In this document: one piece after another, positions 9,751 through 60,875 of the stretch
How the letters are laid out: every line of letters begins with the position of its first letter
Position numbering within the stretch: the first letter of the stretch is position 1
Assembly (NCBI GenBank): GCA_000830275.1
Contig: CP010424.1
Coordinates: 622,782 to 686,781 of the forward strand
Direction: 5' to 3'
DNA length: 64,000 bases
From: an archaeon GW2011_AR10
GTDB lineage: Archaea > Iainarchaeota > Iainarchaeia > Iainarchaeales > GW2011-AR10
Notes under the pieces: generated by a model
Seen by the model: only the letters and a program-made list of their open reading frames with translations
The model's database searches: none
Told to the model about the DNA's origin: nothing
Translations under genes and position numbers: made by a program

Positions 9751-9873
9751 ATGACGTCCTCCCCTGCCTAAAGGCAGAGGGTATCCCAACATTTAATGGA
9801 CGTCATGAACCCGTCAACGCAACACTTTGTCAAAAAGAAAACAGGTGTTTTTATTTCACTTGACAAAGTGTTG
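9751..9873 (+). other. Two adjacent long hairpins; the second (9820-9873) is copy 1 of a 54-bp conserved hairpin element
   Basis: Hairpin 1: 9-bp arms ATGACGTCC / GGACGTCAT (9751-9759 and 9798-9806). Hairpin 2: 14-bp perfect arms CAACACTTTGTCAA / TTGACAAAGTGTTG around a 26-nt T-rich loop. Second copy at 51858-51911. Confidence 0.5.
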
Positions 9874-17661: not shown

Positions 17662-17705
17662 GCTATCGCCTTAGTTTTTCCTTTAGGATAATGTGTTTTC
17701 CATTA

Positions 17706-17750
17706 TAGCAAACAGCTTTGATTTTTGAACATTTAATTTGCTGTTTGCTA
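17706..17750 (-). promoter_or_regulatory. Recurrent inverted-repeat element, site A
   Basis: TAGCAAACAGC-N23-GCTGTTTGCTA, 45 nt upstream of the minus-strand start at 17661; its reverse complement matches site C with a near-identical spacer. Confidence 0.5.
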
Positions 17751-17842
17751 GTTGCAAAACGCAGTTTTTGTTCATATTCAAATACATAAGCATTTTGCTA
17801 TATATATAACTTATTATTATTCGAAATTAGGCAAGGCTTTGC

Positions 17843-21374: not shown

Positions 21375-21901
21375 GTAACCACCACCAAGTGCATTGGCTT
21401 AATAACCCTGTTGTCTTCAACTGCAATCGGGTAAATCCTTGCAACAATTTCTTTGTCGGCAAAAAAACGGTAAGCAAAGCTAGGGGAAGAAGAAATGTCG
21501 CTGTTAATTGCAGGGTCAATGTTGTGGCATGAGAACTCGTTGCCTGCTTCATCCAAGAAAAAGCCCACGTTGTATAGCCTTGCATCCTGGGCATTGTATT
21601 GCAGGCTGTATTGGTCTGTGGCAGTATAATAGTTTGTTATTCCCGCGCGGAATTTAAGGTTTGGAATGCTGAGTGTACTGCACAGCGCTTTGAAGTTCTC
21701 GTAGCCACTTATATAGCTTGTGCCTTTAAGGACTTTGGCAATTTTTATCACTTTGATGTCAGAATCGAACTTGGAGTTTTTATTGTCAAAGACACCGAAA
21801 GCGAAAGTAAAGGTTGAAAAAAACATTATCAGCGCGAAGAGCAGTGGAATCAGGGAAGGCAGGTCATCTCCAATCGGCCCCAAAAAACCTTTATTCAGCA
21901 A
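21362..21901 (-). CDS. Pilus-associated protein with N-terminal transmembrane helix
   Basis: N-terminus MLNKGFLGPIGDDLPSLIPLLFALIMFF; overlaps the downstream gene by 13 bp, so it belongs to the operon. Confidence 0.4.
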   Translation of the reverse strand: MLNKGFLGPIGDDLPSLIPLLFALIMFFSTFTFAFGVFDNKNSKFDSDIKVIKIAKVLKGTSYISGYENFKALCSTLSIPNLKFRAGITNYYTATDQYSLQYNAQDARLYNVGFFLDEAGNEFSCHNIDPAINSDISSSPSFAYRFFADKEIVARIYPIAVEDNRVIKPMHLVVVTWMP

Positions 21902-22587
21902 GTGAAACCAACCCCTGGGTAAACGCTTTCACCCACGCTTGATTTTATGGCATTGCATGTCGGGCCAACGCTGCATGGAAAAATGTAGAGGGAGCTTTGC
22001 CCCCTCTTGATTTCCTTAACTAACTGAATTGAATCCATTGGAACTCTGGCCTGAGGGTCAATGTAAACAGATTCCCCTGTGTCAGTGGCCAGTTCGCGGA
22101 GTGTTCCAATTCCCCCGTACTCGTCACCCAAATAGTCTTGGCTGAAAAGGGTTACTTCTGCTTTTGTTTCAAAGGATTTTGCTGCAATTGCTTTTGGAAT
22201 GTAGGAAGGGTCATTAATTGATTTCACGAGGTCGCGCCTCGGGAAAACCGAGAAAATAACTTTCGAGATTGTTTCAGGGCCTGAGGGAAGCTCTTTCTCA
22301 AACTGCGTTACACTTATTTTCATCACATAGTAGAATTCTTGGCCGCTTACATCAAGGGAGCGCGGGAATGTATGTGAATCAGAAAAACAGTAAGCGGGGG
22401 AAGAAGCAACACTGCTTGCTTTGGTGAGAACCCTGTCAAGCAACAGCTGTGCTTCCTTCACCTTGACTATGTCGATTAAGCCGAAAGTGAAGAAGGCAAC
22501 GATTGCAAAAATTGATACCACAAGTATCAAGAGATTCATTTTGCTTAAAATGAAGCCAAGCATTGTCAAACCCTCTTGTAAACGCAA
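21895..22587 (-). CDS. Pilus-associated protein with N-terminal transmembrane helix
   Basis: N-terminus ...MNLLILVVSIFAIVAFFTFGL; overlaps neighbours on both sides. Confidence 0.4.
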   Translation of the reverse strand: MRLQEGLTMLGFILSKMNLLILVVSIFAIVAFFTFGLIDIVKVKEAQLLLDRVLTKASSVASSPAYCFSDSHTFPRSLDVSGQEFYYVMKISVTQFEKELPSGPETISKVIFSVFPRRDLVKSINDPSYIPKAIAAKSFETKAEVTLFSQDYLGDEYGGIGTLRELATDTGESVYIDPQARVPMDSIQLVKEIKRGQSSLYIFPCSVGPTCNAIKSSVGESVYPGVGFTC

Positions 22588-23111
22588 ATCCTTGGCTGCG
22601 GGGAGAACAAGTGGAACTGCTTGATTAAAGTGTACTGGCCGGGCTCAATTGCTTCGTCTTTCTTCCATTCCTTTACTTTAAATTCTGTTGGCTGGTCGTC
22701 AAAGTCGTGGCAGACTGTTGCGGAAGGAAAATCCGTTGCAGAAGAAATGTTAAGACACTTTATTGAACTGAAGTCAGGCGAGGAAAACAAAAGCAGAGTG
22801 CATTCATAGCGCAACCCGCCACAATGAAAAGAGCAAGTGGCCCGGTCATCCCTGCTGACAATCCTCAGCGAGCTATCATTCTGGTTAAAGCAGGACGGCA
22901 TATCGTATGCAACAGTTTTTTTGCCTTCGCCTTTTGCAACTGTTTCAAGCGCAGTCTTCAATTCCTCCATGTTCTGGTCAATTTTGCCTTCACACTGCGC
23001 TCTCAGCAAAGTGCTCATTGCATTGAGCCCTACAACTATCACAAAAGTCATTGTTATTACTGCAATCAGCAGCTCGAAAGGGGCTGCTTCCTGGCCTTTC
23101 TGGCTGAGCAT
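22566..23111 (-). CDS. Pilin-like protein with archaeal class III signal peptide
   Basis: MLSQKGQEAAPFELLIAVITMTFVIVVGL; start chosen at the internal M because K-G-Q sits right before the hydrophobic helix. The track ORF extends to 23162. Confidence 0.55.
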   Translation of the reverse strand: MLSQKGQEAAPFELLIAVITMTFVIVVGLNAMSTLLRAQCEGKIDQNMEELKTALETVAKGEGKKTVAYDMPSCFNQNDSSLRIVSRDDRATCSFHCGGLRYECTLLLFSSPDFSSIKCLNISSATDFPSATVCHDFDDQPTEFKVKEWKKDEAIEPGQYTLIKQFHLFSPQPRICVYKRV

Positions 23112-23220
23112 GGTAACAAGAATACTGTAAAGAGATATATAAAGATTCTCAGAATCAATCAACAGGTATTGAGGGCAAGCATTATGAGCTGTTTGTGTTA
23201 CTGTAAAAAAACGCAGTGTT

Positions 23221-27224: not shown

Positions 27225-29504
27225 TCAAGACTTTGTTTTGGCAATTATTCCCTTAATTAAGTGGTTTTTTACCCAGTTCTTCCACTCGCCCAGAACCTCT
27301 TCGTAGTCAACGGAACCGTGTTCTTCAAGCTGGTCCTCCTTCAATAGCATGAGCTTGTTGTTTGCAAGAACCGCGTTTTCTGCTTCAAGCAGAGAAGGAA
27401 TTGAATTCTTGTTCTTCATTTCCACCAAAAACTCTTTTGCCGAGCCATTCATTCTTATGCTCCTCCAGATTTCTTCAAGGTTGAGGCCGCTCATCTTGCT
27501 TATCTTTGAGAACATCTCGCTTTCCTTAAGGTTGTCTTCAAGCAGTTCAAGCTCGTCTTTTTTTGCGTCATAACTCATTAGGTCCAGCAAACCGCCCTCT
27601 CTTTCAGGATCCTCAATCCAGTGCTTTTTCACCTCTGTTATCTGGACAATTCTCCTGTTCCTCTGCAGTGACCCGGAAAACCTTATCGGCCTTGCAACCA
27701 CGACAACATCAGTTGCCTTAAACGAAGTGTTTGGAACATCCAAGTCATTCACTACCCTATCCCACACAGAGTAAGCGCTTTCACCGTGGATTGTTCCCAT
27801 CACAATGTTTCCCGCAGCACCAATTCTCATTGCCTCGTACAGAACCCTTGCTTCCTTGCTCCTCACTTCACCTATGATTAGGGCAGAATCTCCCAAACGA
27901 AGCGCTGTCCTCAAAGCTTCCTCTGGCGCAACCTCAGAGGAAGTGCCGCCAGCAGCAATAGGTGAACGCGTTTTAAGCCTCTGGATGTTGAAGCCTATGT
28001 TCTTCATGTAAGGAACTGGAAGTTCCAAGGTGTCTTCCTGCACAATTATTCTCGTGCTCTGGATAATTTCAAGGATTAGTGCCTGCATCAAAGAAGTTTT
28101 TCCGCTGCCCCTTGAACCAGTAACCAGCATTGTTGCCTGTGCGTCAACGAAAAAAGAAAGCAGGCCTGCTGAAAGAGGAGTTAAAAATTTCACGTCAACA
28201 AACTGGGGCAGCGTCCAAGGAGTAACCTTATGCAGCCTGAAAGCAAACGCGATTCCGCTCGGCGCAAGCGGCGGGCCAATGACTGCAACCCTTGTCTCCA
28301 TGTCAGGCAAATCAAAGTCCAGGACTGGATGAGCTTCATCAAATGGCCTGCCTGACATTGCACGCATTTTTGATACAAGCGAACTTGCCTCTCCTTCAGT
28401 GTAAAGAATGTTGGTTTCGCACTGGCCAAAGTCAGAGTGAATAACGTAAAGCGGCTTCTGCCCGATGGGAGAATCAATGAAAATGTCTGTGAGGTTCCTG
28501 TCAGAGAGCAGCAGTTCAAGGATTCCGTAGCCGACAGTGTACCTTGCAACAATCTGGCTTAACTCAATTATTTCATCGTTGCCAAGAGAAATATTGTTCT
28601 CTTTCGCGATGTCCTTGATTGTTGACTGGTAAACGCGCTCAAAGTACTTCCTGCTTTTCGCAAGCTCGCTTAAAGAGGTTTTTCCAGGCCTGTACGATGC
28701 AACGATTTCCCTTGTCTTGCTCAAAATGAAGTACTTGTCCGGGGGCAGGGAATACTCTGGGGGATTGACAATGTAAAGCTTCTGCGGCTTGTTCGGGTGC
28801 TTGAATATCTGCACTGTTGTATCCTTCACTTGGTATTCGTCCAGAAGCTCCAGCTTTTCCTCTTCTTCAAACAGCAGCCTTGAACCGATAAAGGAGGGTT
28901 TTACCTGCGCTTCAAAGAACGGCTTGTACATTTCTTTTGTGTCAGGAACTGTTTTCAGCTTCAAAAGAATCTGTTTGGCTTTCTGGACAAGCATTGTGCT
29001 GTCAAGGTTCTTCTTTATGTAAAGCAGGGTGCGAAGGTAAACATCAGAGTAATGCTCTTTGTCCTCAGAGCTAAAGCGCTCCCTTTCCTTGCTGATGGCG
29101 CGGAGCAGTTCAAGGTAAGAATAAATCGGGTCAAACAACAGGGTATCGTGAGTGATTTTAACAATAGTGTTGTGCCTTTCACCGAAGTCTTTTTCGCCCT
29201 CAATTTTTGCATCCCCTAAAAACTTGTAGCTCCACACGCTTTCAATCTCTAATTTTTGCGCAACCCTCGAAATTTCCTCCAGAAGCTTTTTCTGCTCCTC
29301 GCTGTAAACCCTTTCGTACACTTCAGCCAAAACAATGTCGTCAACTTCCACTTCTTGAAGCAGGCTGAAGACATGGTACCTGCATGCAGGGTCATCAGCG
29401 ATTGAGGAACTATAAACGCAGTCGCGACAGTCAAAAATCAGGTGCCTCTTGTTGCCTTCCTCTTTAACCGCCCAAGGGCCTACTTCAAAACCGCCGATTT
29501 TCAA
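27225..29504 (-). CDS. Type IV pilus assembly ATPase (FlaI/ArlI/PilB-like) with extended N-terminal domain
   Basis: Walker A TGSRGSGKTSLMQAL, Asp box IIVQEDTLEL, Walker B/His box ALIIGEVRSKEA...GTIHGESA; 759 aa, about 200 aa longer than typical FlaI. Confidence 0.8.
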   Translation of the reverse strand: MKIGGFEVGPWAVKEEGNKRHLIFDCRDCVYSSSIADDPACRYHVFSLLQEVEVDDIVLAEVYERVYSEEQKKLLEEISRVAQKLEIESVWSYKFLGDAKIEGEKDFGERHNTIVKITHDTLLFDPIYSYLELLRAISKERERFSSEDKEHYSDVYLRTLLYIKKNLDSTMLVQKAKQILLKLKTVPDTKEMYKPFFEAQVKPSFIGSRLLFEEEEKLELLDEYQVKDTTVQIFKHPNKPQKLYIVNPPEYSLPPDKYFILSKTREIVASYRPGKTSLSELAKSRKYFERVYQSTIKDIAKENNISLGNDEIIELSQIVARYTVGYGILELLLSDRNLTDIFIDSPIGQKPLYVIHSDFGQCETNILYTEGEASSLVSKMRAMSGRPFDEAHPVLDFDLPDMETRVAVIGPPLAPSGIAFAFRLHKVTPWTLPQFVDVKFLTPLSAGLLSFFVDAQATMLVTGSRGSGKTSLMQALILEIIQSTRIIVQEDTLELPVPYMKNIGFNIQRLKTRSPIAAGGTSSEVAPEEALRTALRLGDSALIIGEVRSKEARVLYEAMRIGAAGNIVMGTIHGESAYSVWDRVVNDLDVPNTSFKATDVVVVARPIRFSGSLQRNRRIVQITEVKKHWIEDPEREGGLLDLMSYDAKKDELELLEDNLKESEMFSKISKMSGLNLEEIWRSIRMNGSAKEFLVEMKNKNSIPSLLEAENAVLANNKLMLLKEDQLEEHGSVDYEEVLGEWKNWVKNHLIKGIIAKTKS

Positions 29505-29524
29505 CGCAATTCACCTTTAAAATT

Positions 29525-29612
29525 GCGAATTCCCTTTATTAATAGGTGGTTCAGTGGAATTCGCGTAACTCAAAAACCACCCATAATCCACCGACTTAGG
29601 CCGGTGGTTTTT
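29525..29612 (+). other. Conserved structured intergenic element, copy 1, followed by hairpin plus T-run
   Basis: 9-bp inverted repeat GCGAATTCC / GGAATTCGC encloses GGTGGTT, which can pair with the downstream AACCACC; then CCACCG-N8-CGGTGG followed by TTTTT. Core GGTGGTTYAGTGGAATT...AACTC...AAAAACCACC recurs reverse-complemented at 51926-51999. Confidence 0.45.
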
Positions 29613-29759
29613 GAAAGCTGCAGCGAATAAAAAAGGCCTAATCTTATTATTATACTTTATCTTCAATGAAAGAAACTAATAATAATAACAAAATACATTG
29701 TTTTTCTGCGGAAAGTGAAGCACTAAGAGCATGGCTGACTTGAAGCAAAAGGTGAACTG

Positions 29760-30995
29760 ATGCGGTTCGGCGAAGTGTTAAAGAATTCATTCACCCTGTG
29801 GCTGAAGGACAAAAAGAGCCTTATATATGTTCTTGCATTAATTGGATTGTTTGCGGTTCTCGCAGCTGGATTGATTGCTTTTCTTGCAATTGGTTCTTTG
29901 ACTAACTCGATTAGATTTATTGAAGGTTCGGACTTAACCCAAGTGGCCCTTTCAGATGACGGAAACATCATCTTCCTGGCAATTGCGGCAATTGTTTTGC
30001 TCTGCGCTTTTATAGTGTTTTTTGTAGGCACATTCTATGTGTCAGCCTTGCTGGAGGTTCGAGCGCTGCAGCTGCTGGGCTTTAACACCGCGCGGTTCGG
30101 GCTAATTAAATTCGTCAAGCTTGTTCTATTCCAGATTTGGGTTTCAATCATGGCCTACACTTCATGGTACAACAAGGTGTTCTTCTACTATCTAATCGGG
30201 CTGATTCTCTTCTGGGTTACATCAATCGGCGTGTTTTTGCTGATTGAGCGCATCGGAAACATTTTGCTTTTATTGGCAACACTGCTTTCAGCTGTCTACC
30301 TTTTACCTGTTATATACAACACAATTAGGCTGAGCATTGCTTCCGCCATTTATCTCCATGAGGACTTTGGGATTATGAAGGCAGGAAGGGCCGCATGGGA
30401 GCTAGCGCACAAGAAAGTGCTTGGAATATTCATTGCATTCCTGCTGGTGCAGATTGCAATTCAAATATTACTAATCATACCTTGGTTTGTCTTAATTATT
30501 GCGGCAAACGTTGCCCTGCTTTTGACAGGCATAGAACTCTTAGCAATTGCAATTGCTTTCACAGGAATGGCCTTGATAATTATTTTTGCTATTGTTGTTT
30601 CATCTTTTGCAGTGCCAAGCATTTACTCGGAAGTGAAAAACAGCCCGAGCGAGCAGCCACCTGCCCCAAGTGGTTTGCCGAAAAATACAACTGCCCTTAC
30701 AACAATGCAAACCAATGAGCCGATTGAAAGAATGCGCGCATCAATCCAAAGGCAGGAGCCAGTTTACTCTCAGCCACAAAGGCAACAGAGCTATGCAAGG
30801 CGCAGCCCTGCAGCTGCTGGGCTTTCAGCGGTTGAAAAAGCGCATGTGAACAAGCTTGCTGCAGTGCTGAAAGACGTTTCCCACCGCTACAAGGAATCGG
30901 AAATAAGGCAAGTAATAAAGGAAAAGAATTACTCTGACAGAATAGCGGATGAAACAATCAAGCTGCTCCAGAAAGACCTTAAAAACAGCAAATGA
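29760..30995 (+). CDS. Hypothetical polytopic membrane protein
   Basis: 411 aa with about eight hydrophobic helices and a hydrophilic C-terminal tail. Confidence 0.45.
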   Translation: MRFGEVLKNSFTLWLKDKKSLIYVLALIGLFAVLAAGLIAFLAIGSLTNSIRFIEGSDLTQVALSDDGNIIFLAIAAIVLLCAFIVFFVGTFYVSALLEVRALQLLGFNTARFGLIKFVKLVLFQIWVSIMAYTSWYNKVFFYYLIGLILFWVTSIGVFLLIERIGNILLLLATLLSAVYLLPVIYNTIRLSIASAIYLHEDFGIMKAGRAAWELAHKKVLGIFIAFLLVQIAIQILLIIPWFVLIIAANVALLLTGIELLAIAIAFTGMALIIIFAIVVSSFAVPSIYSEVKNSPSEQPPAPSGLPKNTTALTTMQTNEPIERMRASIQRQEPVYSQPQRQQSYARRSPAAAGLSAVEKAHVNKLAAVLKDVSHRYKESEIRQVIKEKNYSDRIADETIKLLQKDLKNSK

Positions 30996-31028: not shown

Positions 31029-31586
31029 ATGCACAAAAAATTTGAATTTCTGAGTAAAACTTTTTCAGAGAAAGAAATACTTAAAGCAGGAAAGTTTCTT
31101 TTGGGCTTAGCTGCATACTTCATTGCGCTGAGCTTTCTTGTTTCACTGGTGCCGCTGGAATTGGTTGAATTCTTTTTTGCATCAGTTTCACTTTTCTTTC
31201 TTGGGTTTTTTGGCTTTTCGGGAGAACTGGTTTTCACGGAACCAGTTATCATGCAATTGCAGGGCTTGGAGCAAGGAATTGCAATAACCTATCTTTGCAC
31301 TGGCCTGCTGGAACTGGTGCTGCTTGTTTCAGCTGTTGCCTCCTCGTTCGGCATTGAATGGAAAAAAAGAATTATTGGAGTTATTGCTGGCGCAATTGCA
31401 TTGGTTGCGTTCAACGTTTTCAGGATAGTTTCAAGCATTCTGATTATTCTTTGGTTTGGTTTGGAGGCAGGTGGCTTTTCGCATGACCTGTTGTTCAGGG
31501 TTTTTTTGTTTGCAACCGTTGCCGGCTACTATTTTGTGTGGTTTAACTGGGCCACAAGACTAAAAAAACTGAATTCCACCTTATAG
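31029..31586 (+). CDS. Small polytopic membrane protein, possible exosortase/archaeosortase-family
   Basis: Five to six helices; a helix-embedded Cys (ITYLCTGLLEL) and a downstream N-x-x-R (AFNVFRIV) resemble the conserved Cys and Arg of that family. Weak, motif-level only. Confidence 0.3.
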   Translation: MHKKFEFLSKTFSEKEILKAGKFLLGLAAYFIALSFLVSLVPLELVEFFFASVSLFFLGFFGFSGELVFTEPVIMQLQGLEQGIAITYLCTGLLELVLLVSAVASSFGIEWKKRIIGVIAGAIALVAFNVFRIVSSILIILWFGLEAGGFSHDLLFRVFLFATVAGYYFVWFNWATRLKKLNSTL

Positions 31587-31949
31587 CATTATAGTGTTTT
31601 CTCCTTCAAAGTGTTTGTCCCCAGTAACAATCGGCAGATTGTACTGCTTTGCTGTTGCAAGAATGATTGCATCAATTAAACCAAAATCCTTGAAGTTTTT
31701 TCTTTTTTCTATTTTTAATATACCTGATGTTTCCAATTGTTCTTGGTTGACTTCGATAATTGTAGACAGGTTTTTAACAATGTGAAAAATTTTTTGCCGG
31801 TTAAGTTTGCTTTTTTCAACCCACTCGCTCAGCTCTGCAATAGAAATAGCACTTGTGAAACACTGGTTATTAGCAATAACTTCTTTTACTTTTAGGCCCC
31901 TGCTAGTACCATTAAATAATTCAATCCAAGCATATGTATCCAAAAGCAC
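31581..31949 (-). CDS. vapC: PIN-domain toxin VapC
   Basis: N-terminal MLLDTYAWIE (first acidic residue) and C-terminal PIVTGDKHFEG are the PIN-domain signatures. Confidence 0.8.
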   Translation of the reverse strand: MLLDTYAWIELFNGTSRGLKVKEVIANNQCFTSAISIAELSEWVEKSKLNRQKIFHIVKNLSTIIEVNQEQLETSGILKIEKRKNFKDFGLIDAIILATAKQYNLPIVTGDKHFEGENTIML

Positions 31950-36918: not shown

Positions 36919-36932
36919 ACAATTAAATATAG

Positions 36933-36986
36933 CAAAACGCTTAAGTAATTGAACATTGAAACAAAACGCTTAAGTAATTGAACATT
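36933..36986. repeat. Tandem direct repeat, two copies of CAAAACGCTTAAGTAATTGAACATT, 29-bp period
   Basis: Units at 36933-36957 and 36962-36986, immediately upstream of site B. Confidence 0.6.
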
Positions 36987-37004
36987 TAAATTGCATTTTG
37001 CATC

Positions 37005-37048
37005 TAGCAAACAGCAATAAAAAGTTCAAAAATATAAGCTGTTTGCTA
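37005..37048 (+). promoter_or_regulatory. Recurrent inverted-repeat element, site B
   Basis: TAGCAAACAGC-N22-GCTGTTTGCTA, about 55 nt upstream of the 37103 start; spacer differs from sites A and C but keeps GTTCAAAAAT. Confidence 0.5.
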
Positions 37049-37102
37049 TACAATAAACTTAGTAATGTTAAGTAATGGAATGCTGTGGGTTAAGGTGGTT
37101 GG

Positions 37103-37696
37103 TTGGATAAGAGATGGAAAAACCTGTTGCTCTTGGGGGTTTTAATTCTGGTTGTTGCAGCTGCGGCATTTATTATTCTTCAGCCAGGACCTGGAAGGGC
37201 AAAGACGTTTGGAGAGGGGTTTGAGGAAATGAAAGCATTTTTTGCAGGAAAAGGAATTGATGCCGGGGCGTTAGACATTGAGGACTTGGCTGCTCTGTCT
37301 TCGGCTGAACTTGCAGAGCTAAAAGTTGAGTTGCAGTCTTTTGCAAGTTCGTTTAATGGGCCTGGCTCTGCAAAAGAGCTTGCGGGAGTTTATGTTTCAG
37401 CAATTGATTTGGGGGCCAAGTCAAAAGCGCAGGGCAAAAAAACCAACCAAATTGATGCCCTCAGCCTGCAGGACTACTGTTCAAACATTGTGCTGTTCAA
37501 GGAAAGGGATTCACTGGAGGAGGAAAAAATTGGTTTGCTGGAGCAATTGAAAACAAATATTAATTCTTTTGTTGGAAAGTACTCAAATGAGGCACAGCAG
37601 ATAGGGCTTAAACCGCTTGAAGTGGACATTGAAGCGCTGCGCTCTGCAAATGGTGAGAGAGCAACGGTAACAGCGCAGCTAGAGGGAGCATGCTGA
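37103..37696 (+). CDS. Hypothetical membrane-anchored protein
   Basis: 197 aa with N-terminal signal anchor (LLLLGVLILVVAAAAFIIL); TTG start in track. Confidence 0.4.
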   Translation: MDKRWKNLLLLGVLILVVAAAAFIILQPGPGRAKTFGEGFEEMKAFFAGKGIDAGALDIEDLAALSSAELAELKVELQSFASSFNGPGSAKELAGVYVSAIDLGAKSKAQGKKTNQIDALSLQDYCSNIVLFKERDSLEEEKIGLLEQLKTNINSFVGKYSNEAQQIGLKPLEVDIEALRSANGERATVTAQLEGAC

Positions 37697-44700: not shown

Positions 44701-47700
44701 GTTCCCTTGGAAAAGGGCTTGATGGAAAATACGATGTAAAAAACTCTTTTGATCCTGGAGTGATAAAATACGAAATCGCTGCTGAGGGATTCAAGCCTGT
44801 TGAGGGAGAACTTCAGGTGCTTAAAACCGGGGTGCTGAGGCTGCCGGAGGAAGTGCAGGTAAGCATTCCTGCTGGGCAGGAACAGGCAAGCGTTTCAGTA
44901 AACCTCGAAAATATTTCAGAGGAGTTAGTGCAGGACATACAGTTTGAGGTGAAGAGGCGCGGCAATTTCCCTGTTGGAATGGAGCTGAAGGCAGGCGGGG
45001 TTTCATCCATTCAGGCTAACTCAACTTACAGGGTGCCGTTTACTGCAGCTTACCATGGAATTGCCGAAAGAGAGCACGGCGAGGTTGATGTTATTGCAAG
45101 GGGCAGGGTGCTTGGCAAGTACTCTGTCAGCGCTGAAACAAGAGTGAAAATTGACTTTAACCCCGAGGTTGACCCGGCAGACATTGAGTTCAGCAAGTCA
45201 AAGTTAGTGGCTTACCTTGCAAGCGGCTACGACAACAGGCAGTTCTATGACAACAGCTATAATCAGCGTTACCCTTCAGGCTATGACAGTTCCCTGTACG
45301 GCACTGGTGGCAGCTCTCCGTATGGCACTTCCCAGTACGGCACTGGTGGCACTTCCCAGTACGGCACTGATTACTCCGGCGCAGGCTACTATGACAGCAC
45401 TTCATATCCTTACAGTTACTCCAACAACGTTTACGCGCAAAGGTACTATCCTTCTTATTTGACTGGCTATGGTTCAACTGATTACTCCAACTATAATGAC
45501 ACTCTCCCATACCGTTACCTTAATTACTCAAGCGCGCAGCAGGTTGAGTTCACTATCAGGAACAACTCTGACCTTGACTTGGTGCTGGTGCCGGATGTTG
45601 TAGCAGAGGACAAAATTGATGCTGAGGGAATACAGGTTGATGTGCCGCAGGTTACGCTGAAAAAAAAGGGCACAGCTGTCGGCGGGAGAAGAGAGGACGA
45701 GAAAGCAGTGAAGGTTTCCATAACAAACAAGCTGCTTAGGAATTATCCAAACAAGCAGTCATTCAAGTTTGACCTTGTGTTCAAATCAGATGCAGTCACT
45801 AAGTCCATTCCGCTGGAGATTTTCATTTGGAGCCCAAAGTTTGCGCTGGAAATGCAGCGCAATGTTGAGCTGTGGCTTTCACAGGAAACTCCAACGTCGA
45901 GGGCAATTGCTCAGGTTCCATTGTTTGTGAGGAACGTTGGTTTGGCGCCTGTTGAAAACATTGTGTTCAGGGCTTCGAGCGCGAGCCTTCGCGGCAATGT
46001 CAATGTCAGAGTAATTCCTGCTGTGCCTGTTCCATTCCTTGACAAGGGGCAGGCAATAACTCCGCCGCCAGCGCTTGTGGCTGAAGCAATTAGAACAGAG
46101 AAGACAACCCTGCTGGATGTGAAGCAGATTGACGTGTTTGGAACCATTGACGGAAGGCAGTACGAGTTCGGGCCAATTTTTGTGACAACCCACATTTCTA
46201 GGCCGGAGTGCTTGGTTGTTGTGCCTAACTCGCTTGAATTCCTAAGCGAAAAGGAAACAGGGGCAATAACAAAGGAATTGAAGGTTAAAAACACTTGCGC
46301 TGAAGAGGTAAGGGTTAGGCTCATTGAGCCAAGAGAGTTTGGCTCAAACAGTCTTGACTTGGCGTTTCCTGATGAAGTTGTTCCGCCGGGAAGTGATAGG
46401 CCAATTCAAATAATTTTAACCAAGAACGAGGCGTGGAATGCGCAAACACAGGTTTTTTTGCGCGGCTTCCTTGTGAGAAGCGGCAGGTTCACTTCCTCTA
46501 ACCCAATAAACGTTAACCTCAACATAGGCAAGCAGGGAGTGCAGGACAAAGTAGCTGTTGAAGAAATTTCTGTGCCGGTGTGTGGTGAGGAAGGAAAGGC
46601 AGCTGAAGAAAAGCTCGTTGCGTTTCCGAAGATTGCAACAGGCAATGACTGCAGCAACGCTTACTGTGATGCAAAACAGCTTTCAGAGTTCTTGGCTGAA
46701 AAAATCAGAAGCAGAATTGATGAAACAAAGAGGCAGGTAACCAACTACAAATCTGACTTGCTGAATGTGCCTACTTGCGAAACGCATTCATCAGGCTACT
46801 GTTCTTTTGCTGACTTGGGGCTTTCAGGGGAGAGCTTCAGCGTTTACTTCCAGAACGACATTCTTTCACCGCAGCTACTGAAGGAAGCCCTAAGCGGGAA
46901 AGGCGCGGACCTTGCTTCTTACAGAACAGACTATGCTTCAGGCTCTGATCCGGGCAGGTTTTTGGGGCAGATTGGAAAACAGGTTTTAATCAACGGAAGG
47001 ATTGAGGGGTGCGGGCGCTATAGAATGTCTGTTAACGGAGCAGTGAAAGTGCAGGGCTCGCAGCTGCAGCCTGACCTAATGGTGATACTAATTGATGTGA
47101 ACCCGGAGGGAGAAGCACTGGACAATGCAGAGGGAGCAGCAGGGGGAGCAATGACAGGAAAAGAAGTAACGGAGCAGTGCCTGCCGAAGATACAAAACAT
47201 TGCGAACTTTTTGCCGCTGGATGAAGGGTTCACTCCAGCCAACAGAAAGGACACTTTGCTTGGACTGGTTGATGTCGGCGGTGAAACACCTGAGGAAAAG
47301 CAAAAGCTTGAGGGTTTGGGAAAAGAGGTTGCAACTGGAATGTTTGGGAACGAGGCAAGGTTTGTGCAGAACGCAACCACTTCCAACAGATTGAACCTGC
47401 AGATTGGCGAAACAACTGGTTACTTGGTTAAGGTTGACATTGAGAAAACAGGGGAGGGGGCAAAGAAGACAGTGAAAGCATTCATTCAGGATGCTGGAAC
47501 TAATGCAGAAAAGCAGGGCAAGGTTGCGAAGGAGGCAGCACAAGCAATAATCGGCTTGAGGAACAACGCGATTGACGGATGCATTTCAGCAAACGATGAT
47601 TATGCTTTGCTGAAGTCAGCTGCAGAAGTTGGGGAACTTGAGATAATGGCGTGCAAGGACAGCAAGTTAAGGATTTCAGTTGGAGAGAGCTGCTGTGATA

Positions 47701-50334: not shown

Positions 50335-51807
50335 ATGACTGGAATAAAGGGGTTCACGCTTTTCACTGCACTTGTTGCATTCATACTGATTGTTTTATCG
50401 GTGCTGCTGGTTCAGACAATGATTCGCACCGAGAGGAATACAACTGACATCATTTCAGACATTCAGGAGGAACAGGAAATGCAGGCAATAGCTGATTTGG
50501 CGAGAGCAGAGGCACTGCAAACATTCAATTACGGCATCAGGTTTTCGATTGAGGACTGGCTCACAAAAGACGGGGATGGAGACGGCATTCCTGATAATGC
50601 TTACCTTTTGACGCCAAGCGAGTTGGCTGGAACTGATGCAGAGTCATGGGAGAACACAAAGAAAAAGTTCGCTGAATCCAATTTTGGTGTTGGAGGCGAA
50701 GGAACCCAGTTTGCCAACAGGGCAGCAAACCATCTTTCAACGCTGCTTGCAAGCACGCCTGATGTAAGGGGCTTCCAAGTAAATCTTGACAACAACAGCC
50801 AGGCGGTGATTGTTAGTGTGCTGGAACCATTGTTTGAGGACAGCAGTGCAAGGCAGGACTTTTTTGAAGTGATTCGGTGTGATGGCACTTGGGATGGTTG
50901 CCCGATAGGAACTTTTTATGTTAACCTTGACATTGCAAGACTGACTGATGAGCAGTACGAGAAGCTGCCGCAGATTGTCGTGAAAAAAATCACAACAAAA
51001 GGAGAGGTGGAGAGGACTTTGAGGGAGCCGATTCTTCCAAGGGGAAATTTGCAGATTTATGTGCCGATAAGAATCTTCAAGGCAATTGCTGGGGCAAGAG
51101 ATGTTGCAAGGACAGGCAGCGGGTTTTACTCTGGAGCAATTGATGCAACTTTGTTGGAGGTAAAGTTGGGGGTTTGTGGAGAGAACACTTGCGTGCCGGA
51201 ATACCATTCTGCTTCCGGCCCTGACATTGAAGGTTTTGCCTGCGTCGGCGACACTTACGCTGACCATCCAAAAATTTCAAGCATTCCAGTTTTGATTGAC
51301 GGAACATCTTTCAACTATGATCCAAACAATGAGGAGGAAATGAGGAGCAGGCTGATTAACGAAGTTGGCAGGCCAAGGCTCCTCAACTTCTTTGCAAATG
51401 AGCTGACGCAAAACCTGCCTAATGACTTGAGTGTCCCGGCGGTTGACTTTCGGCTTGTAACAATTCCTGCGGGAAGCGGCTATGACACAATCCAGAGAAC
51501 TTCTGTTATTGTTGTAACTCCTAAGACAAGGCAGGTTGATTTCATTGGTGCGCCATCTGGAGAAGCTGTTTGCGCGAGAATTGACAGGGTTGGCGGCTTC
51601 CTTGTGTTTGAGGACACCAAGCCGGATTACATGGTGAGCGAGTTGCCAAAATATGGTTCTCTTATCCCTACTAACAGGTATGCTGTGAGGCTTTCAACTG
51701 ACTCTTTTTCTGGAGAAGTTCCTGCTGTTAAAACCTGTGAAACCATTGCAACCCCAACTGGAATAGACCTGGCAGATTTTACTTACAGATGCGAGTTCAG
51801 GGGCTGA
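50335..51807 (+). CDS. Large pilin-like protein (490 aa) with class III signal peptide
   Basis: MTGIKGFTLFTALVAFILIVLSVLLVQ: K-G then a hydrophobic helix; contains DGDGDGIPDN. Confidence 0.5.
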   Translation: MTGIKGFTLFTALVAFILIVLSVLLVQTMIRTERNTTDIISDIQEEQEMQAIADLARAEALQTFNYGIRFSIEDWLTKDGDGDGIPDNAYLLTPSELAGTDAESWENTKKKFAESNFGVGGEGTQFANRAANHLSTLLASTPDVRGFQVNLDNNSQAVIVSVLEPLFEDSSARQDFFEVIRCDGTWDGCPIGTFYVNLDIARLTDEQYEKLPQIVVKKITTKGEVERTLREPILPRGNLQIYVPIRIFKAIAGARDVARTGSGFYSGAIDATLLEVKLGVCGENTCVPEYHSASGPDIEGFACVGDTYADHPKISSIPVLIDGTSFNYDPNNEEEMRSRLINEVGRPRLLNFFANELTQNLPNDLSVPAVDFRLVTIPAGSGYDTIQRTSVIVVTPKTRQVDFIGAPSGEAVCARIDRVGGFLVFEDTKPDYMVSELPKYGSLIPTNRYAVRLSTDSFSGEVPAVKTCETIATPTGIDLADFTYRCEFRG

Positions 51808-51857
51808 ATTGCGACAAAAAAGGTGATGGTTGAAACAGCAGTGGAATGAATCTCAAA

Positions 51858-51911
51858 CAACACTTTGTCAAAAAGAAAATAGGTGTTTTTATTTCACTTG
51901 ACAAAGTGTTG
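51858..51911 (+). repeat. 54-bp conserved hairpin element, copy 2
   Basis: One mismatch (loop C to T) relative to 9820-9873; arms identical. Confidence 0.6.
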
Positions 51912-51925
51912 AACCACTATATGCA

Positions 51926-51999
51926 GTCCACCAAAATTATTTGGTGGTTTTTGAGAGTTACAAATTCCACTAAAACCACCCATTAAAATAGGTGGAATT
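51926..51999 (-). other. Conserved structured intergenic element, copy 2 (reverse orientation)
   Basis: Reverse complement reads AAATTCCAC...GGGTGGTTTTAGTGGAATTTGTAACTCTCAAAAACCACC. Outer stem pairs are AAA:TTT here versus GCG:CGC in copy 1, i.e. covarying. Confidence 0.45.
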
Positions 52000-52111
52000 T
52001 GTTTGATTTTAATACTTGGCATGCAACACAGAATTGGTTTAAATAATATAGTAACTTTAATATAGATAAAACGCATTAGTTATTGGTAAAACAAAGGTTT
52101 TCCGTGGTTTC

Positions 52112-55100
52112 ATGCCTGAGGGGAAAAAGGGGCTTTACGCTTCACTTGAGGGAAAGTATTACGATTTGCTTGACTGGCTTGACACGAAGGGAATCCCTGT
52201 TTACAGTGTAGTTGACTGGATTGAGGACAAGAATATTCCTTCCTTTCCTGTTGCAGTGCTTTTCTCCTTTCTTGTGCTGATTTTGGTTGGCTGGCTTGTT
52301 TTGGGCTTGGTTGCGCCGGGCAAGGCAACGCTTTCTGTTTCGGTTTTTGATGAAAGCCTTTCTCCAGTTAGTAATGTTGAAGTGAGCGCTTCGACTGCTT
52401 CTGGGGGAACAATTGGCCCGGAGCTTACTGATGCAAGCGGTGTTGCAAGCATAACTGTGCCAATGAATGAGGAAATTCTTGTTGAAGCAAAAAAGGAGCC
52501 TGATTTCAGGACAAAAACTGAAACTTTCACTGCAATTAAGCAGGAGGAAAGCCTTGAGTTGGAGTTGCAGCGCACGGTTTCAACTTTGAGGAAAACAATT
52601 GAAATTTTGAGGCCTGGAACAAACGAGCTTGTGGACGAGCTTGTGGAGCTTGAGCTTCGATGCAGTGAAAAGCCAGAGTTCAGCGAGCGCGTAACAACCA
52701 CTACAGGCATAATTACTGTTGAAGTACAGAGCGATTGCGGAACACTTCACGTTACTCCTGCCAATGGGTTCACTGCTTCCGGCACAACAAGTTTTGATGT
52801 GAGGGTTGAGGGAACAATTGAACTGTTTTTGAGGGAAGAGGAAACAGGGAAAGGCACAATAATTGTTTCAGTTACTGACAGCTCTGGAACCCCACTGCAA
52901 GGAATTGATGTTTCGGTTGTAGTGCGGAGTGATGAATCAGAAATTGGCTCGGTTGTTGAAACAAAGCAGACTCTTGCTTCAGGCACTGTTACTTTCCTTG
53001 AGGTTCCGGAAGGAACATACTCTGTAACGGCTTTTGACAGAACAGGAACGTTCAGCGAATTTGATTCATCAGAAATTGGCTTGGTGCAGGAAGTTGCGGA
53101 TGGGGCAACCAAAACTTTTTCAATTGCATTGGAGAAAACAGTAGTGGGCTCAATAAGGGTTTTAGTGAAGGACGCTGTTTCGCTTAAGGCAATTGAGAAC
53201 GCAACTGTTTCAGTGAGCAAAGAATCAGTGAATCTCCCTCAAAAGAAAACCGATGCGGAGGGAAGAGCCGAGTTTGGTGTAGGGGAACAGGTAAAGTACA
53301 CTGTTGTTGTGGACAAGGAAGGCTACCTCATTGAAGAACTTGAACTGGAGCCTGCCAATGAGTTCAGGGAAGTTCTTTTAAGGGAGGCAACAGCTGAGAA
53401 CAGCCAGAGCCTTACAGTAATAGTGAGAGACGAGGTAGGCGACCCGATTGAAAATGTAAGAATAACTTTGAGGAACGCGGAAACTGATGCGCAGGTTGGA
53501 AGGGAGCTTGTTACTGGCATTGCAGGAATTGCGTTGTTTGAAAGAGTTGAGGCGGGAACATATTACGTGTTTGCCTTGAAGCCTGGCTTCGGGGAAAAAA
53601 CAAGCCAGACATTCACTTTGAACAGGAGGCAGGAAAACAGGGTGGAGCTAACCATTTCAATCGGTTCTGGAGCAGTTGAATTGATGGTGTTTGATGAAGC
53701 AAAGCAGCCAATGGCTGGGACAAGCGTTAAACTGCTTGACTTTTACTCGAAAGAAGTTTTAAGCGAGGGCATCACAGGCTCTGATGGAATTGCTTCTCTT
53801 GCTGCGAGAGCAGACAAAACAGTTTATGCGGTGGTAACCTTGAGCGGTTACCTGCCGTACATTACTAGAACTGTTAGGATGGGAAAGGATGTAACGCAGC
53901 AACTTGAGGCAGGCATGAGGAAGGAAATAAGTGCTCTTTCACTTGAACTGGTGAGCCTGCAGCTCGGCGAAGAAACTGTGAGAGACGTTGAGGTGCCAAG
54001 CCTTGAGCCGGGGCAAAGGTATAAGGCAAAGTTTTTGCTGCTGGTGCCTAAGGGCTCTGCTTTGGAGGAGGCTGGAGTGCATTTGAGGGTTGGCGCATCA
54101 GAGGAAGGCAAAACAAATGTGCTGGAGAAAGATGACCTGTATATTCTGGGTGTGAGTTCTGCTTTCAGTGAAATTCTGCGCGGCACTTCTTTCACTCCGC
54201 CTATTGGCTATGGCGCTGACGCGCAACATTTTACTTCAGCTGAAGCGAAGTGGGTTAATGTTTTCTTTTCACAGCCAGCAAACGGCGTGATTGAAGTTGA
54301 AGCAGAAATTCAGGTTAGGGAAAATGCAAGGCGCGGCTCAGCGCTTGACTTGTGGTATAGGGCTTGGGGGAAGACAGGAAGTTACCTTAGGTTTCCAAGC
54401 GATGCAGCTCTTGGAAGCTCTGAGAACAGTGCATCAAAGCAGGCACTGTATGCTCAGGCCAAGAACAAGAAGTTTTCTGTTGGCCCAACCAACCTTTGCT
54501 TGAACGAGTTCTGCTCAACTGTTTCAATTGAGGACTTGAGGGAAGAGCTTGAAACAAGCGTTGTGGACGAATATGTTGCGGAAATAGGCAACAATTACAG
54601 GTTAAAGTTTTCCATAAACAGTGTTTCATCAGAGCTATTCGAGCAAGCAGAGCTACAGGTGGTTGACTCAACAGGCAGCCTTGCATTTGGCAATTACGAC
54701 ATTTCAACTGTTGCCGGGGAGCGGAGAAGCGGAACTGCAACAGGCTCAGAGTTAAGGGTTGGAATAGGGAGCCTGGCAAAAGATGACTTCTTTAATGGAA
54801 CGCTTGAGTTCAGTTCAAGAAAGGAGGGAACAGCCTTAGTGCAATTAAGCGTCATTTCATCCAACCAGCGGGTTTTCGAGAAAGAGGTTAGGATCCTTGT
54901 TTTGCCGGCAGAAGAGATGAGCGTTGACATTTTGCCGAAAATAATTGTGCCATTCATTAACAACAACATTTTGGTGCAGGCTTCAACTGAGGCAGAGGAT
55001 GGGTTGCTGTTGCCTGTTCCAAATGCATCAGTTTCATTGAAGAAAGACGGCGAGGTTGTTGCCTCTGGTTTCACTGATTCAGCCGGAATTTTTCCTTACA

Positions 55101-58100
55101 CGCTGTTGAACCCGAACGCAGGCATAACTGTTGGGGTTAAGGTTGAGAAGCCTGGCTTCAGGCCGGTTGAAAAAGAAATAATCGTTACTGAGGACATTTT
55201 GGTTGCAACTCCTGCAACACTGAGGGAAACCCTTAAGGTTGGCTTGGCTCCAAGCAAAGAGCTTGCATTCGGTTTAAGCAATTTAACCCAAGTGCCCCTC
55301 ACTATTTCCAGTGTTGAGGAAAGCGCTGACTTCACTAACTTGGTGAAATTTTCATTTGATGAAACCCTTGAGGGAAGAGTAATTGGGGTTAGGGAGGACA
55401 GCAACTTAACTGTTAGGGTGAGCCTTGCTCCTGCTGGAACTATTGTTGATGAGCCTACTGCTGTGAATGGAGGGGTAAGCGTTTACGTAACGAACCCTGC
55501 ATTTAACCGCACTTGGCGCAGCGTTATTCCTGCAGAGATAAGGATTGGCTTTGGTGAGGAAATAGATGATGCAGACTGCTTCAGCATTTTTCCCAGCGAC
55601 TGGAGGATTTTCACTTCAACTGAGGCCAAATCGTTGAACGTTGATGTGAAGAACTCATGCAAGATTGGCGGAATTCCTGTTAATCTCAGGAACCTGCAGG
55701 CAAGGCTCGTAACCGGCAACCAAAACCAGGCTGGAGAATTCAGGGTTAAGAGCAACTTGGAGGGAAGCAACTCAGTAAATTTAACCGGCAGTTTCCAAAC
55801 CATTTCATTGGTTGTGCCGGAAAACTCGGAGTCAACTTTGACCTTTGATTTTAACCCTGCAAACGTCAAGAGCGCCAGCTCAGAGCTAAAGGTGGAGGTG
55901 AGGGCAATTAACCTTACGGTTAACGGGGCAGAAGAAGTGAAGCGGGCAATAAATGTGAAGGTTAGTGTGAATGACTTAGTGCAGTGCTTGGATATCCCGC
56001 AAAGGGAAGGCCTAAAGCTTTTGAGCTGCCCGTTCAATGTAGGTTATGGAAATTACCCCAACAATTTCGGCGGGGCATACGGTTATGGTGGGTATCCTTC
56101 TGGTTACTCTTACGGCCAAGGTTATGGTGGAACAAGCTATTATGGGAATCAGGCTTCAGGCTACAACCTTTATGGTGGAACAGGCTATTATGGGAACCAG
56201 GCTTCAGGCAACAACCTTTATGACCCTTCCAATACAGGCCTTGGTTATGGTAGCGGCTACAACAACTACAATCCTTACGGTTCCGGTTATGGACTTGGCG
56301 CTGGTTATGGTGGAACAACAAGCTCTTACGGTTACAGTTCCTATGACCCTTACCAAACTCAATCCGGCTACGGAAGCGGATTGCCTCCATACATTGGCAC
56401 GCTTTCACAGCTTGGCTCAACTTACCCTAACCCATCTTATTACTCCCCATCCTATGGCGGCGACTACTATGATAGAAGCGCTAACAACAGGTTTGGGTGC
56501 GGCCCTGGATTAGGCCAGGGAAAAGCAGAAATAGTGCTCAACAATTCCTGCACTGACTCGGTTGAAGTGCAGGCAAGGGATGCTGATGGTTTGATAATTA
56601 ATGAGTCAACTGTTAAGATTGAGAAAGGAAAGCAGGGAAAAATCAGTGTGCAGCCAGCCTACTTTGTTGGAAGGTATCCTGTAGAGATTTCAGCAAGGCT
56701 TGAAGGAAGCGAAGAGTCATTCACTCCGATTGATTCCGTAAACGTAATCGTGGAGAACCCTTTAACTCTTTCATACAGGGACTGCATCAGTGTTTCTCCT
56801 TCAAGGAAGCTTTCATTCAACAACTTTTTCGGAAGGCCTGTAACATTGAAAGTTATAAACAGCTGCGTGAATGAAGGAGTGCGGCTGCTTTTCAGCAACG
56901 ACACGATTTTCTTTTCAAGTGGCGCATTGAGGCAGCCAACCGACGTTAGGAGCGGATTCCACGAAATGATTGAGAACTGGGCAATACTTGATGAAAAGTT
57001 TGAGTCAGCACCAGACGGCAAAACCACTCAAATACTTGAGTTTGAAATAGTGAAAGCGCTGAAGCAGTACTGCAATCAAGCACCGCCTTTCCCAAAAGAG
57101 GGAAGCATTTTCCAGCAGGTGGGAAACTTGCGCTACTTTGCTTCTTCAGCGTACTACTCTGTTCTGGGAAGAGCAAGTTTGACTGTTAAGTTTTTCACTC
57201 CTTTTGGCAGTGAGAGCAGGATTGCTTTCCCGATGGAAATAGAGGACTTCTGGGAGGGGCTGCCTTACGGTGAAAGGCTCATAAGCTACGGTGACCCGAA
57301 TTACACTCCAGACCAATGCGTGAAGCCTGATGCATTGAATTTCAACAACACTTACAATGGGTGCATTCCTATTGGAGAGCTTGACAGGCTTGCAACGCAG
57401 CCTTTTTCAACAAAGAATAATGGAGGCTTAATGGTTGTTGCAGCGCCACAGCCAGTCAGCCAGACTTGCCAGAGCTTCCAGGCACTAGTGCAGGCCGGCG
57501 CGCCAGAGAAAGGCGGCTGCGGAACTGTTGACACAATTTCAGGGCTTTCAAGCAACAGGATTGAAAAGAACGGAATGGTGTTTTACTTTAATGCCCTCAA
57601 TAACCGCGACATTGAAATGCGCGTTGACAAGTCAGCCTGGAACGGAAAAAAGGTTGAGGTTGAGGAAACATTGTTTGTTACAGTTAACAGGGTGGTGCCT
57701 TCAAGCAGCAAGCGGGTTGCTGTGCCGGTCAAGCTGTGCGTTGAAGGCGGAGCTAATATTGGGCAGGAAGAGCAGAGCATAATTGACAAACTTGATGACA
57801 AGTACGGCGAAAACAGGTGGAAGGAACTCGGCGAGTCCGACTTGAATAAGGCAATAAAGGAGGCCAAACCCAATGCAACCAATGAAGAAATCAAAAAAAT
57901 AACGGATTTGGCTAATGAAACCCCAACAACAGGAGAGGCTTTTGTGTGCGAGGCGGGAAAGAGTGGCAGCGCTGTTTACAAGGAGCTTGGCTTTGACAAG
58001 CTGTTGTTTGATTGGCGCTATGACAGCATTGGCATGCAGGCGTGCGATGCAGGTAATGCAGTAGCCTATTACTGTGATGCAACACAGCTGTCAGTGGAGT

Positions 58101-60667: not shown

Positions 60668-60717
60668 CCTATGGCAAAATGCTTATGTGTTTGAACAAAA
60701 AATTGCATTTTTGAAAC

Positions 60718-60761
60718 CAGCAAACAGCAAATTAAATGTTAAAAAATCAAGCTGTTTGCTG
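60718..60761 (+). promoter_or_regulatory. Recurrent inverted-repeat element, site C
   Basis: CAGCAAACAGC-N22-GCTGTTTGCTG, 115 nt upstream of ATG 60876; spacer and about 40 nt of upstream flank match the reverse complement of site A. Confidence 0.5.
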
Positions 60762-60875
60762 TACGCTTAAACATAACAAAAAGTTATGATTAAAACCATA
60801 ACCAAAAAGTATATTAATATTAGATTAATTAGATTACTTATATTAATTTGGAAATTACCTGCGCACGGTGAATAA

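Follow-up and report, generated by a model that had tools for sequence, protein, structure and literature searches.

A paired-hairpin repeat beside pilus and giant surface-protein genes of archaeon GW2011_AR10 looks like mobile or formerly mobile DNA

What are the two related, structured sequences that lie on opposite strands between genes of the archaeon GW2011_AR10, one beside a pilus ATPase gene and the other upstream of a giant surface-protein gene, and do they serve these genes? Both fall within the 64,000-nucleotide stretch analysed here (the window), and a preliminary description had taken their alternative pairings and apparent covariation to suggest a functional RNA or a DNA cruciform site. 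Copy 1 occupies a divergent spacer, flanked by the T2SSE-type pilus ATPase gene (27225–29504, minus strand) and a 411-aa ORF (29760–30995), while copy 2, on the strand opposite to copy 1, is located between a 490-aa ORF (50335–51807) and giant gene 2 (52112–60121). The 411-aa and 490-aa products match proteins of GW2011_AR10, Candidatus Iainarchaeum of the Diapherotrites, with full identity. The relationship of the two copies and their opposite strands are confirmed by alignment: the segments 29528–29587 (+) and 51999–51936 (−) form the best local alignment of both intergenic regions, with a score of 55, and shuffled sequences scored 19.7 ± 2.4 with a maximum of 31 (n = 300). The copies are ~80% alike and differ by indels. 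One of these falls within the core that had been described as shared; the core is indeed common to both, but it reads GGTGGTT-C-AGTGG in one case and GGTGGTT-TT-AGTGG in the other, a 1-nt indel and not a single Y. On either strand, dinucleotide shuffling (n = 200) gave no sequence that folds as well as copy 1 or copy 2, whether as RNA (z −3.7 to −4.4) or as DNA (z −3.7, −4.2). Strain contigs from different samples were identical in sequence and orientation at copy 1 (9/9) and copy 2 (10/10), and these 19 contigs carry no polymorphism, inversion or covariation information at either copy.

The boundaries first given for the copies were too short. Copy 1 extends from 29525 to 29615 and copy 2 from 51851 to 52002, the latter including a foreign 54-nt palindrome. 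Each element of the family (~90–150 nt) is a pair of related hairpin units with a common plan, which, with both strands read, is X – CCAC(C) – spacer (4–27 nt) – CCACC – short palindromic stem-loop – GGTGG – X′, where X is complementary to X′. Copy 1 is a complete doublet in which unit A, in reverse orientation, is joined by a 4-nt linker to unit B, in forward orientation. Unit A (29525–29564, −) reads GCGAATT-CCAC-TGAA-CCACC-TATTAATAAA-GGGAA-TTCGC; its 9-bp outer stem is intact, and its inner CCACC/GGTGG hairpin has decayed, GGTGG having become GGGAA. Unit B (29569–29615, +) reads CTCAAAAA-CCACC-CATAAT-CCACC-GACTTAGGCC-GGTGG-TTTTTGAA and forms a 12-bp outer stem followed by T5, which makes it terminator-like on the plus strand. 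The two units score 39.5 and 51 bits with model R3. In copy 2 both units face forward on the plus strand, unit B preceding unit A. The part of unit B that lies 3′ of the insert (51912–51955, +; 43.5 bits) reads AA-CCAC-TATATGCAGT-CCACC-AAAATTATTT-GGTGG-TTTTTGAG, and its displaced 5′ arm, TCTCAAA, is found at 51851–51857. Unit A (51960–52002, +; 53.7 bits) reads ACAAATT-CCAC-TAAAA-CCACC-CATTAAAATA-GGTGG-AATTTGT and has an 11-bp outer stem.

The enclosing stems named in the preliminary description were found in both copies, as GCGAATTCC/GGAATTCGC in copy 1 and as AAATTCCAC/GTGGAATTT in copy 2, where the stem lengthens to 11 bp as ACAAATTCCAC/GTGGAATTTGT. Two of the three outer pairs do change from G:C to A:T, as had been claimed for all three, but the middle C:G pair is unchanged. 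The proposed pairing of GGTGGTT with AACCACC is likewise possible in both copies and corresponds to a contact between the two units. Within a unit, three folds can be drawn. The inner hairpin pairs the 3′ GGTGG of the unit with the near CCACC, and the outer stem pairs GGTGG plus X′ with the far CCAC plus X, which excludes the inner hairpin. In the third fold the first CCAC forms a bulge, and X:X′ stacks on the inner hairpin. On the ATPase strand of copy 1 (29569–29590, −) a 4-codon upstream ORF, AUG GGU GGU UUU UGA, can also be read with GGUGGA ahead of it; as a family trait it was rejected, being missing from copy 2 and from the other members.

A covariance analysis with more copies, the check that had been proposed for this structure, bears out both alternative helices. 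It is based on alignment A6, which holds 10 units of 40–69 nt each from five loci; these form five doublets, four of them inverted and one, copy 2, direct. The inner helix is paired in 92% of cells, with four pairs changed on both sides (10 such cells), and the outer helix in 89%, with seven such pairs (17 cells), values to be read with the caveat that the units are few and partly related (the L085 and L087 members are ~88% alike) and that the structure was derived from these same sequences. The unpaired cells of the inner helix stem from unit A of copy 1. The covariation score was reached by none of 500 shuffles for either helix, and controls in which the arms were slid gave 21–51% (inner) and 33–56% (outer) paired cells. 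The CCAC(C)/GGTGG feet are invariant across the 10 aligned units, with regular spacings of 10–15 bp, and the stem extensions past CCACC differ yet pair (AATC/GATT, AGTC/GACT, GGTC/GACC, CATC/GATG, AAA/TTT). Only ~3 G-U cells occur among ~180 paired ones, and nearly all pairs are Watson-Crick. Since units stand in opposite orientations within one element, complementarity is held on both strands, which would fit a DNA-level or strand-symmetric role better than an RNA made from one strand. The same is suggested by the scarcity of G-U pairs and by the element's indifference to orientation.

The family reaches beyond AR10. A pattern scan of metagenomes returned 26 stretches, four of which are true members, namely L096 (the window's own copy 1), L085, L087 and L100, all recovered with one loose pattern; the remaining stretches are without the flanking motifs. 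Together with copy 2 this gives five independent loci, in either orientation and with unrelated flanks. The adjoining genes share nothing, encoding a pilus ATPase, a giant surface protein, an amino-acid permease, MetK, and HisI with an M50 peptidase, and no ORF is conserved across the members. L085 lies between an asparagine-synthase-like gene and the permease gene, ending 6 nt before the permease ATG; L087 follows a bacterial-type metK and precedes a small ORF by ~30 nt; and L100 sits between the convergent hisI and M50 peptidase genes, at a locus that also holds hisF. The upstream ORFs of L085 (asparagine-synthase-like) and L087 (metK) run into the element and end in the same tail, QYSTNL* (L085 1350–1377, L087 1083–1108), which stops on the element's TGA and takes the place of the native C-terminus that relatives retain. 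The host of L085 is a low-GC archaeon whose locus encodes eRF1, aIF5A, L37ae and prefoldin, and its permease is nearest to proteins named Nanoarchaeota/Woesearchaeota. Contigs of the AR10 type and of the L085 type come from the same aquifer samples, so that horizontal spread would be possible.

Model R3, run over the window and 205 kb of loci, gave doublets only, and solo units were absent. Neither the two-copy model R1 nor the five-copy model R2 found extra copies in the window or in relatives. The copy number seen is two doublets in ~70 kb of the 1.24-Mb AR10 chromosome, none in ~100 kb of relatives and one in ~25 kb of the L085 organism. The metagenome scan does not allow rarity to be concluded, because it returned no JGI contigs with copy 2 (for example Ga0209211_10000053), which its pattern should match, and its sparse results therefore understate the distribution. 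In other collections, a 21-base pattern gave three chance matches among species-genome contigs, a collection from which AR10 was evidently left out, and a 16-base core pattern gave 66 matches in viral contigs, all by chance and in coding sequence. Unit-type patterns returned either no matches in viral contigs or ordinary phage terminators, and blastn with two members gave no match in plasmids and phages. A homolog search with the giant protein for AR10 paralogs yielded only 13 proteins and no paralog.

Copy 1 had been taken to overlap the likely promoter of the pilus ATPase operon, but the promoter-like box that relatives conserve lies outside it. A BRE/TATA-like box, GATAAAGTATAATAATAAG (29643–29661, −), upstream of the ATPase gene is conserved in L079 and L082, whose ATPases are ~75–78% identical to that of AR10, and we take this box to be the probable promoter in view of its conservation and the archaeal promoter consensus. 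Copy 1 is situated between it and the Shine-Dalgarno sequence AGGTGA (29511–29516, −) with the TTG start codon (29502–29504, −) of the ATPase gene (27225–29504). The ATPase leader of L079 and L082 is without the ~50–70 nt that make up copy 1, which identifies copy 1 as a lineage-specific insert that separates the probable promoter from the Shine-Dalgarno/TTG. A gap of 9 nt lies between these two signals and the foot of unit A, and the unit does not sequester them. At the second locus, the spacer upstream of giant gene 2 measures 304 nt in AR10 and 160 and 137 nt in the orthologous L139 and L141, and the latter two spacers contain no element and gave no model match. At the third, the permease site is empty in L113 and L114 (77–79% identical permeases) and filled in L085. 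The element is therefore absent from relatives at all three loci for which orthologous spacers were recovered (copy 1, copy 2 and permease), the filled and empty junctions being too diverged for base-exact comparison.

The surroundings of the two copies hold several features of their own. The homologs of the pilus ATPase are named Diapherotrites, and several orthologs in that group (P0017, P0025, P0084, P0087 and others) reach ~1270 aa and contain intein/LAGLIDADG domains, which are absent from the AR10 protein (759 aa). One Rifle scaffold (L005, 9125–14933) is a strain variant of the window from ~21400–23200 and beyond, where genes encoding a large TPR protein, an HTH protein and an FtsK/SpoIIIE-type ATPase stand in place of the pilin-like genes after the ATPase operon. 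The cause could be an assembly chimera or an island specific to that strain. Toxin-antitoxin pairs (PIN, HicA, ParE, MazE-like) are scattered round the pilus locus in AR10 and a relative (window 31581–31949 with the adjacent 72-aa ORF; L081 9529–9958, 16019–16680 and 20186–20652), and the window also encodes a PAC2-family protein. The two giant surface-protein genes have short in-frame tandem repeats at 45282–45383 and 56122–56217 (39 and 48 nt). A third intergenic repeat family, 72–93% identical, is present at 17704–17806, 36924–37051 and 60670–60764. Downstream of these copies lie a 1609-aa gene, the ORF at 37103 and a giant gene with its start past 60.9 kb. The copies carry BRE/TATA-like boxes (AAAACGCTTAAGTAAT) and a GCAAACAGC/GCTGTTTGC hairpin, and the family has the look of a promoter-leader module common to surface-protein genes.

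Copy 2 is itself the target of an insertion. The 54-nt palindromic element at 51858–51911, which is not a family member, has perfect 14-bp terminal inverted repeats, CAACACTTTGTCAA, and an asymmetric 26-nt centre; a second example, differing by one base, is located at 9820–9873. At position 51880, strain contig L132 has the base of the other palindrome copy. The insert splits the 5′ outer arm of unit B, and removal of 51858–51911 in silico restores a 15-bp outer stem, TCTCAAAAACCAC... opposite ...GGTGGTTTTTGAGA. The insertion is precise, with no duplication of target bases, so that besides the doublets AR10 has at least one small palindromic element capable of such precise insertion. The split arm is present in every strain contig examined. 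Each AR10 copy thus has one damaged unit, copy 1 in the inner hairpin of unit A and copy 2 in the arm of unit B.

With its dispersal, empty orthologous sites, doublet layout, compensatory structure and nested insertion, the element family looks like a mobile or formerly mobile DNA repeat of DPANN archaea and not like a regulator of the pilus or giant genes. The more specific reading, a REPIN/MITE-like, non-autonomous hairpin-doublet repeat that is partly decayed in AR10 and incidentally adds hairpins to the pilus ATPase leader, we give roughly an even chance. We infer that it would have spread as DNA through a trans-acting enzyme recognising single-stranded hairpins with CCACC/GGTGG feet. The AR10 copies would be ageing relics, a view taken because one unit in each is damaged, and nothing in AR10 points to recent activity, copies 1 and 2 being only ~80% alike and separated by indels. 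Effects on neighbours would be incidental, as where two strong hairpins may open the pilus ATPase leader, or where hairpins would come to stand behind the 490-aa gene and ahead of the promoter-like boxes of giant gene 2.

An A/T-rich, TTTAAA-like left flank is shared by four of five members, with no defined target motif; the element ends are loosely inverted (CAAKAWWCCACC), and the terminal repeats are only loosely alike (WWCCACC). No target-site duplication is recognisable at any of the five members, where a clean junction is likewise not definable. Neither the window nor the DNA within 10 kb of a member yielded a transposase, integrase or HUH gene, and the scanned ORFs of the window and the called genes of the related loci contain no transposase, integrase, reverse transcriptase or Orc1/Cdc6 domain. 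The end of a known mobile element had been named as an explanation that would undo the first interpretation; what we find is dispersed, insertion-like behaviour, but no parent element. IS608-type TTAC/TCAA cleavage motifs and a geminivirus-like TAATATTAC in L085 were considered, and neither is conserved across members. Also unfavourable to a mobile repeat are the apparently low copy number in the kilobases surveyed and the preservation of the CCACC/GGTGG feet and of two competing helices across lineages of 33% and 44% G+C, which selection for a host function could explain as well.

Such a function might be that of a strand-symmetric structural module acting in transcripts as a pair of UTR hairpins, whose task would be to shield mRNA ends, to pause or end transcription, or to mark a processing site. 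It would be free of orientation since the doublet is nearly palindromic, and it may first have been dispersed by transposition and then kept. Should the box at 29643–29661 be the promoter, transcription of the ATPase gene would begin only a few nucleotides from unit B, and the mRNA would carry the 12-bp hairpin of this unit at its 5′ end. The members just ahead of the permease ATG and of the small ORF, and the one between convergent 3′ ends, are also placed as UTR hairpins would be. Unit B of copy 1 resembles an intrinsic terminator, the AAGAACCACC...GGTGGTTCTT type of hairpin is an ordinary terminator hairpin in phage contigs, and covariation preserves stems that RNA could use. The scarcity of G-U pairs speaks against this module, however, as do the T-run after unit B, which is unconserved (TTTTT in copy 1, TTCTTGA in other members), the relatives that do without the element at 3/3 orthologous sites, and the damaged unit fixed in every strain contig of each AR10 copy. 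On balance we hold the UTR module to be less likely than the mobile repeat.

Alternatively, the doublet could act as DNA, as a protein-binding or cruciform site in which CCACC/GGTGG half-sites form an array for a nucleoid, regulatory or Orc1-like protein. Invariant and regularly spaced feet would suit such an array, as would Watson-Crick-only complementarity, indifference to orientation and the strong folds of single-stranded DNA, and the AGTGGAAT/ATTCCACT core is, as we take it, loosely reminiscent of archaeal mini-ORB boxes. Binding sites in double-stranded DNA, however, would not need variable spacers to stay self-complementary, as they do here, and no Orc1/Cdc6 or evident regulator domain was found in the scanned ORFs of the window. 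Cumulative GC skew has no clear turning point at copy 1 or copy 2, and relatives lack the element at the same loci. We consider a binding site unlikely.

The preliminary description pointed in the direction of a cis-regulatory RNA specific to the pilus and surface-protein genes (riboswitch, attenuator or thermometer) or of an invertible promoter controlling them. In its favour, both AR10 copies lie upstream of cell-surface genes, and the mutually exclusive helices have an attenuator-like 1:2 / 2:3 / 3:4 topology. Such a role is now very improbable, and the distribution of the family, whose members flank unrelated genes in both orientations, already largely refutes it. Copy 2 lies upstream of the putative TATA-like boxes of giant gene 2 and not in its leader. 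The TATA-like loops of the AR10 units are not kept in other members, so an internal promoter is unlikely. Rfam 15 gave no match in the window at the gathering threshold, and none that qualified even at E ≤ 10, where the best hits reached at most 21 bits against thresholds of 37–90. As for an inverton, this was rejected because the 9 + 10 strain contigs show one orientation and sequence, the TATA-like loop is unconserved and no recombinase was found; moreover, site-specific inversion would hardly be expected with inverted arms only 22 nt apart. Of the functional RNA or cruciform first proposed, then, the structure is real, and a dedicated regulator of the pilus ATPase operon or giant gene 2 is unsupported.

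A tRNA remnant or integration (att) site is refuted for practical purposes: GGTGGTTCAGTGGAATTC presumably resembles the D-arm region of some tRNA-Gly genes and GGTGGTT/AACCACC looks acceptor-stem-like, but ARAGORN found no tRNA or tmRNA gene in the window, Rfam gave no tRNA match at the permissive threshold, the 'acceptor' arms are only ~25 nt apart with no T-loop, and the copies are inverted, not direct, with no integrase nearby. The tRNA origin that the preliminary description had listed as a possible refutation therefore does not apply. C/D-box, attC, DGR, ORB-origin and split-tRNA readings were rejected because their defining parts are missing.

Returning to the mobile or formerly mobile repeat, its interest lies in its hosts. 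DPANN archaea have tiny genomes in which small mobile or repeated DNA has hardly been described, and a family present in Diapherotrites and at least one other archaeal lineage of the same aquifer would offer a handle on DNA exchange among episymbionts, and on single-strand DNA transposition in them. For annotation it carries two warnings: covarying intergenic hairpins beside pilus or giant surface-protein genes do not alone make the case for a dedicated regulator, and inserts can rewrite both 5′ leaders (ATPase) and the 3′ ends of genes (metK, asparagine-synthase-like). The retention of two exclusive helices by covariation, and their sharing across two archaea of the same aquifer, lead to a further and rather doubtful reading, in which the doublet would be a true two-state nucleic-acid switch or else would correspond, in archaea, to domesticated hairpin-repeat systems. 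Either a conserved protein that recognises hairpins and is yet to be discovered would then be involved, or an RNA function that persists in both orientations.

How does the family compare with known systems? Among archaeal and bacterial MITEs are the PATE of haloarchaea, palindrome-associated elements derived from IS200/IS605. Like these, the AR10 family is small, non-coding and intergenic, has hairpin-forming ends, and is scattered among unrelated flanks in some lineages but missing from others; as with IS200/IS605, no target duplication is obvious. In contrast to MITEs, a parent insertion sequence or transposase was not found in the window or within 10 kb of members, and whereas the end hairpins of IS200/IS605 are on the same strand, the units here are inverted in 4/5 members. 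The family would be a MITE in part, by its small size, dispersal and presence/absence. The Correia elements of Neisseria (CREE/NEMIS) are inverted-repeat elements of ~100–150 nt between promoters and start codons, which are co-transcribed and whose hairpins alter mRNA processing and expression. Correia elements number in the hundreds and carry 26-nt terminal repeats, an IHF site and a TA duplication; in the AR10 family we see none of these traits.

The doublets appear to work most like REP doublets (REPINs, BIMEs) and small MITEs, among them Correia elements and palindromic elements derived from IS200/IS605. The REPINs and BIMEs of Proteobacteria, mobilised by RAYT/TnpA_REP, are likewise extragenic, short, imperfect palindromes dispersed as pairs of hairpins, usually inverted, with stems kept by compensatory change and a conserved foot sequence. 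In UTRs, where the AR10 family is also located, they can stabilise or terminate transcripts, and they are targets of other insertions, as copy 2 is of the 54-nt palindrome. REP palindromes conserve a GTAG or CGTC tetranucleotide at one end (PMC3733652); in the 10-unit alignment this tag is absent from the unit ends, the feet here being CCAC(C)/GGTGG, and an extra CCAC per unit gives two competing helices. REP sequences number tens to hundreds per genome, whereas the number here is apparently low (two doublets in ~70 kb of AR10). REP systems also have a single-copy RAYT (Y1 HUH) gene with the repeats on its flanks; no RAYT gene was found within the window or 10 kb of members, and the hosts are DPANN archaea; in a survey of the superfamily, RAYT classes were not observed in archaea, and IS200/IS605-type Y1 HUH transposases (subclass 1.1) were the only class reported there (PMC6006769). 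With the tag absent and RAYT classes unobserved in archaea (PMC6006769), the doublet family does not appear to be a member of the REP/RAYT family. Nonetheless the feature is genuine and has a structure, and the family it represents is an undescribed one of a known kind.
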